IMG/VR virus record: IMGVR_UViG_2711768070_000012
Coordinates: 1-8,577 of that record
Direction: 5' to 3' (one strand)
Source: a virus
Taxonomy: Duplodnaviria; Heunggongvirae; Uroviricota; Caudoviricetes
Length of the DNA stretch: 8,577 nucleotides
Made by a program: the position numbers. Within the stretch, counting starts at the first letter, position 1. Each line of letters opens with the position of its first letter. Below are positions 1 to 6,000 of the stretch, one piece after another.

Positions 1-3000
1 CGGGAAGAAGCATCCGTTATCGCCGGACTGCCAAACGTCAGCGAGCTGGTTGATATGGTTTACGAGTATTGCCGGAAGCGAGGCCTGTATCCGGATGCAG
101 AGTCTTATCCGTGGAAATCGAACGCGCACTACTGGCTGGTTACCAACCTGTACCAGAACATGCGGGCCAATGCGCTGACTGACGCGGAATTACGGCGCAA
201 GGCCGCAGATGAGCTTGTCCATATGACTGCGAGAATTAACCGTGGTGAGGTGATTCCTGAACCAGTAAAACAACTTCCTGTCATGGGCGGCAGACCTCTA
301 AATCATGTTCAGGCTCTGGCGAAGATCGCAGAAATTAAAGCTAAGTTCGGACTGAAAGGAGCAAGTGTATGACGGGCAAAGAGGCAATTATTCATTACCT
401 GGGGACGCATAATAGCTTCTGTGCGCCGGACGTTGCCGCGCTAACAGGCGCAACCGTAACCAGTATAAATCAGGCTGCGGCTAAAATGGCGCGGGCAGGA
501 ATCCTTGTCATTGATGGTAAGGTCTGGCGAACGGTGTATTACCGGTTTGCTACCAGGGAAGAACGGGAAGGAAAGGTGAGCACGAACCTGATTTTTAAGG
601 AGTGTCGCCAGAGTGCCGCGATGAAACGGGTATTGGCGGTATATGGAGTTAAAAGATGACCATCTACATCACTGAGCTAATAACAGGCCTGCTGGTAATC
701 GCAGGCCTTTTTATTTGGGGGAGAGGGAAGTGAACGATAGCTACCGACAGTTTGAAAACTGGTGGTCAAAAGACAAAAGCCAGTTCACGGGAGACGATGA
801 ATTAAAAGAGTTTGCCTGGGTGATATGGCAGGCATCGCGCTCTGCTATTGAACTGGATATCGACTGGCCCGAATCGAATGACGACTTTTGGAAAGATGGT
901 GAAGAAGGTGCTTATGCGATGGGTTATGAGGATGGGCGTGACAAAACGGTAATTGCAGTAATGAAAGCCATCAGGGCCGCAGGAATCAAAGAAAAGAATT
1001 TCGATTAAGCAAATATCACTTCAATAAATCGCTTTTAAGGCATCACAATCGCTCTGTACGTTTGAGGAGGTTTTAAGAAATGAGTACGATAGCTGAGCTT
1101 GTCAGGGCTAATTTTCGTGAAGAGTTGGTGCGTTGGTATCGGTATCGTTCATCGTCCAGTTTGCCGCTTGATGAGTTGTATGAGCATTCACCTGCCGCAC
1201 GACGCTATCCGCGTGACCGTGTTCTTCGACGGTTGTTCAAACTCAACAATGAGTTTCAGCGCAACAGAATTATCCGGAGTCTGGATTTTAAGTGAAGGAG
1301 TGAGCATGAGCGACCTATCATTAACCCAGCCAAAGCTAAAAGAATGTCCGTTTTGCGGCGGTAATGCTCGTCTGTGGGTTGAGGCCGGAATAAATATTGA
1401 TGTGTGGGGCTATGCAGAATGTGACCTCTGTGAAGCCAGGGGGGCATGGGCACCATCAGTTGCTGCGGCGGCTGAAAAATGGAACCGGAGAGCAGGAGAT
1501 GAAGCAAACCTTTCTGCTTCGCAACGAAGCAATCAGAAATAACGCCATAGACGCCATTCTCTCACTACCCATCGACGACAAGTCACCCCACGAAGTCCAC
1601 GTTAAAGAACCCAAGCGCAGCAAAGCGCAGAATGACCGTATGTGGCCGATGCTGAACGATGTTTCGCGTCAGGTGCTATGGCATGGTCAACGGCTGGCGC
1701 CGGAAGACTGGAAAGACCTGTTCACTGCCCTGTGGCTTAAGACCAAAAAACTGGAGCAACGAAGTGTGCCTGGTATCGACGGTGGCGTTGTCATGCTTGG
1801 CGTGCGTACCAGCAAAATGCGGAAGGCCAGCATGACTGAGCTTATCGAAATCATGTTCTGGTTCGGCTCAGAGCGCAACGTGCGGTGGAGTGATGACTCC
1901 TGGCGAGAGTATGAATGGTCACAACGAAAAGGGAGAGCTGCATGACTATCAAATCAAATACGCCATCACACGACAAGGACTGCTGGCAAACGCCGCTTTG
2001 GCTTTTTGATGCACTGGATATTGAGTTTGGATTCTGGCTGGATTCAGCTGCGAGCGACAAAAATGCTCTGTGCGCTCACTGGCTAACTGAGGCCGACGAC
2101 GCGCTAAATTCTGAGTGGATAAGCCACGGTGCAATCTGGAATAACCCACCGTACAGCAATATCAGGCCGTGGGTGGAAAAAGCCGCTGAGCAGTGCATAC
2201 AACAGCGACAGACGGTAGTGATGCTTGTGCCAGAGGATATGTCAGTCGGATGGTTCAGCAAGGCTCTGGAGAGTGTCGACGAAGTTCGCATTATCACTGA
2301 TGGACGGATTAATTTTATCGAACCATCGACAGGGCTGGAGAAGAAGGGAAACAGCAAAGGCTCCATGCTGCTGATTTGGCGACCGTTCATCAGTCCTCGA
2401 CGAATGTTTACTACTGTATCCAAAGCGGCATTGATGGCGATCGGGCAGGGCGTCAGGATGGCGGCATGAGGCGACAGCGAAGAAGTATCACCGACATCAT
2501 CTGCGAAAACTGCAAATACCTTCCAACGAAACGCTCCAGAAATAAACGCAAGCCAATCCCAAAAGAATCTGACGTAAAAACCTTCAACTACACGGCTCAC
2601 CTGTGGGATATCCGGTGGCTAAGACATCGTGCGAGGAAAACAAGGTGATTGACGCGATGATTTATTCGGGGCTATATTCCTCACGCGCCAGCAAAATCTG
2701 GCGTCGGGATTAGCACCCCGGATATCGAAACGGTGCATAACCGCGCTGGCGGTTTTTTTATGCGCTAAGCACAGTCACATTCGCGATTTATGGCGGGCTG
2801 TGTGGGGGAGCCGAAAGGCTCGCCGGATGTTTCGACCGGTAGTGCTAACCCCGCACAGTTCGCCACCACGATGATTAGCACCTGACGGTGGCGAGGTAAA
2901 AATTATCGAAACGCGAGGTCATTATGGCTGTTCAAATTTCTGTCGAAAACCTTTCCCCTGTTACCTATAACCAGATCCCCGTAATTACTACTGAACTGTT

Positions 3001-6000
3001 GGCTCACCTTTACGGAACAAAAATCAAAAACATTTCTGATAACTTTCTGAACAACACGACGCGATTCATGCCCGGAAAGCATTACTTTAAAATTGAAAAA
3101 AACGAATTACGCGAGTTTAAGAACAGACCCGAAACAATCGGGTTAGTTGGTAAAAATGCCCGCTCCCTCATCCTCTGGACAGAACGCGGAGCAGCCCGTC
3201 ACGCCAAAATGCTCGAAACCGATCAGGCGTGGGATGTGTTCGAAAAACTGGAAGACTGCTATTTCAGCCAGTGCAAGAAAAATACTGGCAAACAAGAGAA
3301 GAGCACCAACGAGCTTTCCGCAAAAGAAGCAAACAGCCTTGTATGGTTATGGGATTATGCTAACCGCTCACAGGCATTATTCCGCGAACTGTATCCGGCG
3401 CTAAAACAAATTCAATCGAACTATTCCGGCAGATGCTACGACTACGGTCATGAGTTTTCGTATGTTATCGGAATGGCGAGAGATGTTTTAATCAACCACA
3501 CACGAGATGTTGATATTAATGAGCCAGACGGACCAACGAACCTTTCCGCATGGGTAAGGCTTAAGAACAAAGAGTTGCCGCCTTCACTGCATCGCTACTG
3601 ACAATTGACAACTTAACAAACCCAGCTTCGGCTGGGTTTTTTATTACTGAATTTTCAATGTGAGAGGACATGACAATGAATGAGCTGATAAATAGCAATG
3701 CCATCAAAATGACAAGCATTGAAATCGCTGAGTTGGTGGGAAGTCGTCATGACAAGGTGAAACAATCCATTGAACGACTGGCGGTTCGAGGTGTGATCCG
3801 AAATCCCCCAATGGTGGTTTTCGAAAAAATCAATAACTTAGGATTACTTCGTGGCGTAGAGGCTTACGTTTTTGAGGGCGAACAAGGTAAGCGCGACAGC
3901 ATTATTGTCGTTGCCCAGTTGTCGCCGGAATTCACCGCTCGCCTTGTTGACCGCTGGCGAGAACTCGAAGGGGCAACCGCGAAAATACCACAAACCTTTT
4001 CTGAGGCATTGCGCCTTGCGGCCGACCTTGAAGACCAGAAGGCTGAACTGGAGAAACAGCTTGCTCTCGCAGCACCTAAAGTTGAGTTTGCCGATCGCGT
4101 TGGCGAGTCCAGCGGAATTTTGATTGGAAACTTTGCAAAGGTTGTTGGTATTGGTCCAAACAAACTGTTTGCGTGGATGCGCGATCACAAAATCCTTATT
4201 GCTTCAGGCTCCCGGCGCAATGTGCCAATGCAGGAATATATGGATCGTGGCTATTTCACAGTGAAAGAAACAGCGGTCAACACAAATCACGGAATACAGA
4301 TATCGTTCACCACAAAAATCACCGGGCGTGGTCAACAGTGGCTGACAAGAAAGCTGCTAGATAACGGAATGCTTAAAGTAACAGGGGAGGCTGCTTAATG
4401 GCTAAACCAGCGCGAAGGAAATGCAAAATCTGTAAGGAATGGTTTCACCCGGCATTCTCAAATCAGTGGTGGTGCAGCCCGGAACACGGAACTAAATTAG
4501 CGCTCGAACGACGAAATAAAGAACGCGAAAAGGCGGAAAAAACAGCAGAGAAGAAACGACGACGAGAGGAGCAGAAACAGAAAGATAAAATTAAGATTCG
4601 AAAACTCGCCTTAAAGCCCCGCAGTTACTGGATTAAACAAGCCCAACAAGCCGTAAACGCCTTCATCAGAGAAAGAGACCGCGACTTACCATGTATCTCG
4701 TGCGGAACGCTCACGTCTGCTCAGTGGGATGCCGGACATTACCGGACAACTGCTGCGGCGCCTCAACTCCGATTTGATGAACGCAATATTCACAAGCAAT
4801 GCGTGGTGTGCAACCAGCACAAAAGCGGAAATCTCGTTCCGTATCGCGTCGAACTGATTAGCCGCATCGGGCAGGAAGCAGTAGAGGAAATCGAATCAAA
4901 CCATAACCGCTATCGCTGGACTGTCGAAGAGTGCAGGGCCATCAAGGCGGAGTATCAACAGAAACTTAAAAAACTGCGAAACAGCAGAAGTGAGGTTGCA
5001 TGAATATCTACGAAAGAATTGATGGCAGCAAATACCGAAATATTTGGGTAGCTGGCGATCTGCACGGATGCTACACGAACCTGATGAAAAAACTGGAGAC
5101 GATAGGATTCGACACCAAAAAAGACCTGCTTATCTCGGTGGGCGATTTGGTTGATCGCGGTACAGAGAACGTAGAATGCCTGGAATTAATCACATTCCCC
5201 TGGTTCAGAGCTGTACGTGGAAACCATGAGCAAATGATGATTGATGGCTTATCAGAGCGTGGAAACGTCAATCACTGGCTGCTTAATGGCGGTGGCTGGT
5301 TCTTTAATCTCGATTACGACAAAGAAATTCTGGCTAAAGCTCTTGCCCATAAAGCAGATGAACTTCCGTTAATCATCGAACTGGTGAGTAAAGGAAAAAA
5401 ATATGTCATCTGCCACGCCGATTATCCTTGTGATAAATACGAGTTTGGAAAGCCAGTTGATCATCAGCAGGTAATCTGGAACCGCGAACGAATCAGCAAC
5501 TCACAAGACGGGATCGTGAAAGAAATCAAAGGCGCGGACACGTTCATCTTTGGTCATACGCCAGCAGTGAAACCACTCAAATTTGCCAACCAGATGTATA
5601 TCGATACTGGCGCAGTGTTCTGCGGAAACCTCACATTGATTCAGGTACAGGGAGAAGGCGCATGAGACTCGAAAGCGTAGCTAAATTTCATTCGCCAAAA
5701 AGCCCGATGATGAGCGACTCACCACGGGCCACGGCTTCTGACTCTCTTTCCGGTACTGATGTGATGGCTGCTATGGGGATGGCGCAATCACAAGCCGGAT
5801 TCGGAATGGCTGTATTCTGTGGTAAGCACGAACTCAGCCAGAACGACAAACAAAAGGCTATCAACTATCTGATGCAATTTGCACACAAGGTATCGGGGAA
5901 ATACCGTGGCGTGGCAAAGCTTGAAGGAAATACTAAGGCAAAGGTACTGCAAGTGCTCGCAACATTCGCTTATGCGGATTATTGCCGTAGTGCCGCTACG

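Follow-up and report, generated by a model that had tools for sequence, protein, structure and literature searches.

A probable RNA-controlled antirepressor cassette and a separate roi gene between ninE and ninG of a lambdoid Escherichia coli prophage

Introduction

What are two regulatory-type genes, with a strong terminator between them, doing in the nin region of a lambdoid prophage? The question is raised by an 8,577-nucleotide (nt) stretch of Caudoviricetes DNA (IMG/VR record IMGVR_UViG_2711768070_000012, positions 1 to 8,577), here called the window, which covers the replication-to-late junction of a lambdoid Escherichia coli prophage. An earlier note, made from the sequence alone, had pointed to two open reading frames (ORFs) at 2924-3601 and 3670-4398, and had read them as a single module split by a terminator: a “Roi-like ORF6N” protein followed, with different timing, by a Rha/KilAC protein that could act as an antirepressor on heteroimmune prophages or host factors. 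Both ORFs exist, both are positioned between ninE and ninG, and both products belong to the domain-shuffled “antirepressor-like” set of phage proteins. The reading that we think probable is nevertheless a different one, in which the interval holds two independent units: an autonomous, RNA-controlled antirepressor cassette (approximately 2649-3650), occupying the ninF slot of HK022-type phages, and roi (3676-4398).

Results

The upstream gene encodes the candidate antirepressor

The antirepressor homologies lie with the product of the upstream gene, ant. Its ORF6N domain is matched at residues 12-96 (Pfam, 73.1 bits against a gathering cut-off of 27.8) and its P22_AR_C domain at 103.1 bits (cut-off 22.4), and the protein matches PHROG 377, “anti-repressor Ant” (2e-81). 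It is 92% identical to phi24B Ant and 70% identical to VT2-Sakai Ant. The two ends have different relatives: amino acids (aa) 1-124, which include the ORF6N domain, are 87% identical to STM2616 (AnrP) of Gifsy-1, a protein without P22_AR_C, and the last 104 aa are 91% identical to the C-terminus of P22 Ant, the C-terminal part being nearer to P22 and CP-1639 than to phi24B. P22 Ant itself begins with P22_AR_N and is under Arc/Mnt/sar RNA control; in the window protein P22_AR_N is absent from the N-terminus, ORF6N standing in its place, and neither arc nor mnt lies upstream of ant, where the region holds IsrK and C4 elements.

The comparison with HK022 Roi (a single pairwise one) gave only a 37-aa local match of 23.5 bits (E 0.002), which is no meaningful similarity. 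The earlier label for this gene was thus half right: ORF6N stands, “Roi-like” does not, HK022 Roi being the counterpart of the second ORF (84% identity), and P22_AR_C had been missed. Sequence searches of solved structures with Ant and Roi returned nothing meaningful (best E about 0.3), and NCBIfam gave no match for Ant, Roi or a 31-aa ORF upstream of ant.

The ant product is homologous to phi24B Ant, Gifsy-1 AnrP and P22 Ant, all of which have been tested; it, and not the Rha/KilAC protein, which is Roi, is the candidate antirepressor. In phi24B, knocking out ant left the pR' reporter at approximately 27-56% of wild type after norfloxacin, and complementation restored most of the activity (PMC3064807); AnrP induces the Gifsy-1 prophage (PMC4825925).

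An IsrK/C4-type RNA leader precedes ant

Between ninE and ant lies an RNA leader (2672-2870), overlooked earlier, whose parts are listed in Table 1. The -10 hexamer of the promoter-like site at its head ends 7 nt before the start of the IsrK model. The positions of the -35 and -10 hexamers are conserved in VT2-Sakai, in three IMG/VR loci (L027, L078, L069), in TL-2011b, in YpM41, in APSE-7 (TTGACG-18-TATAGT) and in Gifsy-1, where the counterpart is the isrK promoter. Inspection by eye of 2640-2700, around this site, found no LexA box of the form CTGT-N8-ACAG.

The IsrK-like RNA corresponds to the a1/b1 leader found in C4 systems (Rfam RF01695 and RF03163, clan CL00128). Its predicted fold comprises a first hairpin, a second hairpin with b1 in the loop (TTAGCAC, 2710-2716), a linker that holds a1 (TCGAAAC, 2725-2731), and an intrinsic terminator (stem 2739-2754, T-run to 2759). 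The C4-type RNA that follows carries its own pairing segments, a' in a loop (GTTTCGA, 2829-2835) and b' (GTGCTAA, 2842-2848): b' is the exact complement of the heptamer found at both b1 and b2, and a' of the heptamer found at both a1 and a2. The downstream copies are in the leader of ant itself, with a2 ending 2 nt before the Shine-Dalgarno sequence and the ant ATG at 2924; the same leader has a GGTGGCGAG element (2887-2895) complementary to the 3' end of C4.

An experimentally studied likeness is the isrK-orf45-anrP-isrJ unit of Gifsy-1, which has the same parts: promoter, IsrK with a leaky terminator, C4-like RNA, ORF6N antirepressor and closing terminator. There, the isrK promoter drives isrK-orf45-anrP, with read-through transcripts that are translationally silent; a processed RNA of approximately 80 nt, STnc1160, comes from the orf45 region; and IsrK supplied in trans raises anrP translation approximately 140-fold (Hershko-Shalev et al., 2016, PMC4825925). 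The Gifsy-1 C4 falls in the interval that the same paper assigns to orf45 (PMC4825925), and, in the numbering made in this analysis, mutations G28A/G31A fall in b1 and C159U/C162U in b'. The two units differ in position (downstream of Q in Gifsy-1, in the ninF slot in the window), in their a and b specificities, and in their closing terminator, which is isrJ in Gifsy-1 and of P22 ant type in the window, where Rfam finds no IsrJ homologue after ant.

A wider likeness is to the immI region of P1/P7 (c4-icd-ant) and to the P4 CI/seqA-seqC system, in which a processed antisense RNA also lies between upstream and downstream copies of its own targets; in P1/P7, as in the window, the downstream copy adjoins the ribosome-binding site of the antirepressor operon. 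The window differs from P1/P7 in having no icd-like coupled ORF, in encoding an ORF6N/P22_AR_C protein rather than Ant1/2, and in that the upstream target copy would be released as a separate, terminated small RNA (sRNA), IsrK. By analogy with C4 systems, processing of the window's C4 and repression of ant would be expected.

The leader is widespread, being present in 1759 of 5426 complete E. coli genomes (about one third) in up to 7 copies per genome, and is usually unannotated in E. coli RefSeq records, among the matches listed. It is 100% identical in several phages, and 109 E. coli records match it at at least 99% identity.

The terminator marks the end of the cassette

The terminator between the two genes is as strong as had been claimed: the hairpin (3618-3639) with its T-tract has a folding free energy of -15.1 kcal/mol (z -4.65), and 0 of 200 shuffled sequences fold as well. 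Its affiliation can be read from relatives. The match between window positions 3290-3642 and P22 (85.6% identity) or epsilon34 (91.8%) ends exactly after the hairpin, ACCCAGCTTCGGCTGGGTTTTTT, which is identical in P22; the P22 and epsilon34 records annotate it as the terminator between ant and the tailspike gene (gene 9 in P22). CP-1639 is 100% identical to the window over 3290-3668. Just past the T-tract, at TCAATGT (approximately 3655), ninF-type and ant-type phages become homologous again, some 20 nt ahead of the roi ATG; the comparison places the mosaic junction with ninF-type phages at approximately 3654, just 3' of the terminator.

A survey of 80 IMG/VR loci encoding close Roi orthologues gives the same picture, the hairpin standing upstream of roi in 43 of 45 ant-class and 7 of 7 remnant-class loci, and in none of the 22 ninF-class loci that could be scored. 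In one locus (L062) it stands behind a short piece left over from the 3' end of ant, itself placed after an unrelated P63C-domain gene. Closing terminators are found on other cassettes too: Gifsy-1 has isrJ, APSE-7 a hairpin, and 16 of 44 cassettes from IMG/VR have one (mid-ORF controls, 0 of 44). On these alignments the terminator is the 3' boundary of a mobile ant cassette, and not a regulatory split inside one module, as had been proposed.

Another possibility is that the pR operon is what the terminator chiefly serves. It would then be one more terminator of the nin region, comparable to lambda tR2-tR4, by which expression of roi, ninG and Q stays dependent on N, and its link with ant would be incidental. 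It does lie in the nin region, upstream of Q, and the cassette puts two intrinsic terminators (2739-2759 and 3618-3645) on the path from pR to Q. No promoter-like site was found on the + strand between the terminator and roi, or further on up to Q, which leaves read-through as the way to roi, presumably by N-modified pR transcription. The earlier statement that the second gene needs either antitermination or a promoter of its own is supported as far as read-through goes; the part played by N is presumed. Two observations speak against the pR operon as the main client: in P22 the identical hairpin follows ant in the immI region, beside the tailspike gene and far from the nin region, and ninF-type phages with near-identical roi have no such hairpin (the 0 of 22 above). 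As the terminator's principal role, service to the pR operon seems to us doubtful; as a side effect, it is compatible with a two-unit interval.

Two observations on hairpins may be added. Loci L191 and L222 carry, after their first ORF, a variant, AAAGGAGCTTCGGCTCCTTT, with the UUCG loop of the window's AAACCCAGCTTCGGCTGGGTTT and a stem that is different yet complementary; this could be a relative, with a compensated stem, of the P22-type ant terminator. Matches to rsmX, istR and STnc370 on the minus strand around the window's terminator were far below Rfam cut-offs, and were set aside as terminator-shaped noise.

roi is an older nin-region gene, often found without ant

The second ORF opens at 3670 (3670-4398, 242 aa), and its start is probably the second ATG, at 3676, which is common to HK022 and lies 8 nt after a GAGG. 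Its product is 84% identical, over 241 aa, to the protein that HK022 encodes after ninF (241 aa), just upstream of the ninG slot, with the same KilAC C-terminus and a divergent stretch at N-terminal residues of approximately 22-65; identity to phi24B Roi is 88%. The ANT/KilAC domain is matched at residues 128-230 (Pfam, 114.4 bits; cut-off 25.3), so that half of the earlier “Rha/KilAC” label is firm. Phage_pRha reaches 26.8 bits with the full-length protein and 29.4 bits with the isolated N-terminus, below the gathering cut-off of 29.9, the match spanning model positions 1-90 of 91; since these scores are near the cut-off, and since an APSE-7 homologue that is 49% identical to Roi over the N-terminal domain scores 38.8 bits, the name “Rha-like” is borderline, though a reasonable one.

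In HK022 the end of ninF and roi overlap, and no terminator precedes roi; in the window roi follows the ant terminator. Both genes had been assigned to the ninF slot; this is correct for the ant cassette and incorrect for roi, which in HK022-type phages comes after ninF. roi is a nin-region gene of older standing, and would be transcribed as part of the pR operon. Its name and order are not new: the records of VT2-Sakai, JLK-2012, CP-1639 and phi24B name the upstream gene ant and the downstream gene roi, the phi24B GenBank record already gives ORF6N/P22_AR_C for Ant and pRha/antirepressor for Roi, and Smith et al. (2012, PMC3430580) place Roi downstream of Ant in Stx (Shiga toxin) phages.

Could the two genes still form one module, Ant-Roi, whose internal terminator sets different timing and whose Rha/KilAC product is the antirepressor? 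Upstream of roi in the 80 surveyed loci there is an Ant-type gene in 45, directly upstream; ninE-ninF overlapping roi, as in HK022, in 27; another insert in 7; and too little sequence in 1. The 45 fit one module, and so do the name of PHROG 63, matched by Roi and called “anti-repressor Ant”, and the domain type of its C-terminus, KilAC being that of P1 Ant1, itself under C4 control. The 27 do not: there roi occurs without the cassette and without the terminator. Seen from the other side, Gifsy-1, TL-2011b, Yersinia phage YpM41 and P22 carry the cassette or ant and no roi. Among non-redundant IMG/VR leaders (n = 44), the first ORF usually encodes a protein of antirepressor type: ORF6N in 15, Bro-N in 9, Rha in 4 (a point for one module, a Rha-domain protein standing directly under the leader) and AntA in 1, with P22_AR_C in 7 of the 44 proteins and 5 of the 44 loci being P4-like; a Roi-like product (Rha plus ANT) is encoded by the second ORF in only 4 of the 26 that have one. 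The terminator, moreover, travels with the 3' end of ant, both in P22 and in remnants such as that of L062.

The exception, which fits one module in gene order, is APSE-7 (L004, 2459-4334), a non-lambdoid Hamiltonella phage with the order promoter, IsrK, C4, antirepressor, terminator-like hairpin, Roi-like gene. Its antirepressor is a Bro-N protein, unrelated in sequence, and its Roi-like gene combines the N-terminal domain mentioned above with a different C-terminus. This arrangement alone hints at some functional link between cassette and Roi, with Roi working together with the cassette, as a weaker possibility. As for Roi itself, the HK022 protein is reportedly a DNA-binding protein and not an antirepressor; in work attributed to Clerget and Boccard in 1996 it is said to bind a site inside its own gene, modulated by IHF (integration host factor). 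Taken together, a single two-gene module is improbable: ant and roi are not an obligate pair, each being often found alone.

The survey brought up further arrangements around antirepressor genes. At three loci (L008, 415-498; L070, 824-907; L080, 2792-2875) a match to Rfam sRNA-Xcc1 (73-76 bits) stands before ant, replacing or following IsrK/C4, and in L070 and L080 it comes after a truncated first cassette; these may represent another antisense-leader family for antirepressor genes. Five P4-like satellites (L152, L165, L186, L201, L223) have the IsrK motif in a leader followed by small ORFs and a primase of approximately 790 aa, which fits the known relation of IsrK/C4 to P4 seqA/CI. An IS3-family element sits inside the RNA leader upstream of ant in L060 (1960-3120), and should uncouple ant from RNA control. 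L054 and L057 have two tandem cassettes with different alleles.

Recognition sequences covary among leaders

Eight leaders were aligned (the window, VT2-Sakai, three IMG/VR prophages, TL-2011b, the Yersinia phage YpM41, and the aphid-symbiont phage APSE-7), and pairing was scored by position-specific counts of Watson-Crick pairs only. The b sequences differ among them (AGCAC, GGCGT, TGCAC, GGAAC, CGCAT), co-changing at all three sites: b' with b2 and b1 with b' are 100% paired in all eight, against 16-50% in slid controls, and 4 of the 7 pairs show compensatory changes. Between a' and a2, cognate matches run to 6-9 nt and non-cognate ones to 3-7 nt, the value of 7 being reached only between the window and L069, which have one a sequence between them, and all other non-cognate values being 6 or less. 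Two of the leaders have an a2 that overlaps the start codon. Whole-molecule C4/target duplex energies had also been tried and were uninformative, long duplexes ignoring intramolecular structure and the shuffle controls being weak; longest-run matrices that allowed G-U pairs were noisy.

On a larger scale, the b triad (a leader's own b1, its exact reverse complement approximately 150 nt downstream, and a second copy approximately 182 nt downstream) is present in 78 of 103 distinct IMG/VR leaders, against 0.065 on average for non-cognate alleles. There are 18 b1 alleles among the 103, the largest class without a triad being possibly unrelated. The commonest b1, TTGGCGT, is found in 46 of the 103 leaders; TTAGCAC, as in the window, is rare (3 of 103). 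Reassortment of a and b is independent: L069 has the a of the window with another b, and VT2-Sakai, TL-2011b and YpM41 have one b between them and different a. This allele-specific pairing is analogous to the heteroimmunity of P1 and P7, and the covariation across relatives shows ongoing selection on the pairings.

That IsrK and C4 are instead decayed relics, with ant expressed from pR as an ordinary delayed-early gene, could draw on the loss here of orf45-type coupling and on the phi24B knock-out phenotype, which was observed after SOS induction, with pR active (PMC3064807), and is very improbable in view of this covariation, of isrK, c4-a1b1 and C4 scores that are all above or well above Rfam cut-offs, of two exact 7-nt target pairs in the window, of the identity of the leader in the phages and E. 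coli records noted above, and of the weak expression of ant in uninduced phi24B lysogens (PMC3064807).

Other features of the window

Features of the window are collected in Table 1. To the left of ninE are the 3' end of a P-like gene, a ren-like gene, small ORFs, ninB and dam. No complete E. coli genome matches the full window, the best giving 88% coverage at 96% identity, and positions 2600-4500 have 93-95% DNA identity to many Stx phages. The order ninE-ant-roi-ninG is that of the Stx phages phi24B, VT2-Sakai, Min27 and CP-1639; the window differs from them in being a different mosaic, with a Q of lambda/HK022 type and no stx genes in view.

Table 1. Coordinates of the main features in the window
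Feature	Position	Strand	Description
ninE	2466-2648		
Cassette promoter-like site	2649-2678	+	TTGACG, 18-nt spacer, TATATT; 10 of 12 consensus positions, best in the window
c4-a1b1 element	2672-2724	+	Rfam, 50.6 bits (cut-off 46.7)
IsrK-like sRNA	2685-2759	+	Rfam isrK (RF01394), 76.6 bits (cut-off 50)
C4-type antisense RNA	2786-2870	+	Rfam C4, 75.1 bits (cut-off 45)
31-codon ORF overlapping C4	2790-2885		Positional counterpart of Gifsy-1 “orf45”
ant leader target region	2875-2918	+	b2 TTAGCAC 2875-2881; a2 TCGAAAC 2906-2912; Shine-Dalgarno GAGG 2915-2918
ant	2924-3601	+	225 aa; ORF6N N-terminal domain, P22_AR_C C-terminal domain
ant-cassette intrinsic terminator	3618-3645	+	9-bp stem, UUCG loop, T6
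roi	3676-4398	+	HK022 Roi orthologue; borderline Rha-like helix-turn-helix N-terminal domain and KilAC (ANT)
ninG	4398-5003		Start at 4398
Q	5662-6285		lambda/HK022-type; Ser/Thr phosphatase gene between ninG and Q

Three places outside the ninE-ninG interval deserve mention. A strong terminator-like hairpin (AGGCCTGC...GCAGGCCT) with a T-run lies at 685-708, directly after the ren-like ORF (369-659), the expected place of a lambda tR2-type terminator. Between Q and the late region, 6400-7600 is a low-GC island (33-40% G+C, against about 50% in the flanks) that looks like a moron inserted downstream of Q; its ORF at 6523-7281 encodes an apparent membrane protein of 252 aa with a strong match to PHROG 1521 (unknown function) and none in Pfam or NCBIfam. 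Finally, positions 7536-7741 give a sub-threshold match to the sRNA STnc100 (37.5 bits; cut-off 47) that ends at the strongest terminator of the window (7712-7730, 7 GC pairs, T8); full-score STnc100 matches (107-167 bits) lie downstream of Q in related loci, and the late promoter may have here a short leader RNA comparable to lambda 6S or StxS.

Discussion

How might an autonomous antirepressor cassette in the ninF slot work? In a lysogen, its sigma-70-type promoter would yield mostly an IsrK-like RNA of approximately 75 nt, ending at the leaky terminator, and the transcripts that read through would contain the C4-type antisense RNA and then the ant leader. Pairing of a' and b' of C4 with a2 and b2, just 5' of the Shine-Dalgarno sequence, would keep ant untranslated. 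If IsrK accumulated, its a1 and b1 copies would titrate or remodel C4 and Ant would be translated, as in the IsrK/AnrP system of Gifsy-1; Ant would then help to lift repression and speed prophage induction, as for phi24B Ant, Gifsy-1 AnrP and P22 Ant. The ant terminator would in the lysogen stop transcripts from the cassette promoter before they reached roi, ninG and Q, and during lytic growth N-modified transcription from pR would pass both cassette terminators. Differential control of ant would come mainly from the upstream sRNA/antisense system, which the earlier note had not seen.

Several points weigh against parts of this scheme, the gene order of APSE-7 among them. Some concern the RNAs. 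In Gifsy-1 the constitutive C4-like STnc1160 enhanced the toxicity of IsrK instead of relieving it (PMC4825925), which leaves a simple scheme in which C4 represses and IsrK acts as a sponge unproven. The IsrK hairpins alone are no more stable than shuffled sequences (z -1.3). The small ORF that overlaps C4 is in a different frame from ant and ends 39 nt short of its ATG, unlike orf45 of Gifsy-1, whose stop overlaps the anrP start (AUGA); with the orf45-anrP coupling absent, details of activation may differ from those in Gifsy-1. Others concern the target of Ant and the passage of the terminators: superinfection immunity was unaffected by phi24B Ant, whose direct target was not demonstrated (PMC3064807); N-dependent read-through is assumed from lambdoid biology, N and nut lying outside the window.

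As an ant-roi pair of a Stx-type lambdoid prophage, the locus is already known, and all its components have been published or are in curated databases: Stx-phage annotations since the VT2-Sakai and phi24B records, the phi24B knock-out, the Gifsy-1 IsrK study, Rfam, and the annotation of the P22 terminator. The value of the analysis is corrective: the gene names are to be swapped, the terminator is to be read as the 3' boundary of a cassette, and the RNA leader would be the real control element of ant.

What could the diversity of the leaders mean for prophages that share a host? One suggestion, which we regard as rather unlikely, is a combinatorial RNA “immunity code”, written in the a and b sequences, among co-resident prophages: alleles are diverse, a and b reassort independently, and a genome can hold up to 7 copies, so that the IsrK or C4 of one prophage could act on the antirepressor of another with a matching allele. 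If this were true, there would be RNA-mediated cross-talk, or insulation, of prophage induction, Stx phages included, the antirepressor of another prophage being switched on or silenced. Since Ant speeds the induction of Stx-type prophages (PMC3064807), leader allele diversity could matter for the co-induction of co-resident prophages, and hence for toxin production.

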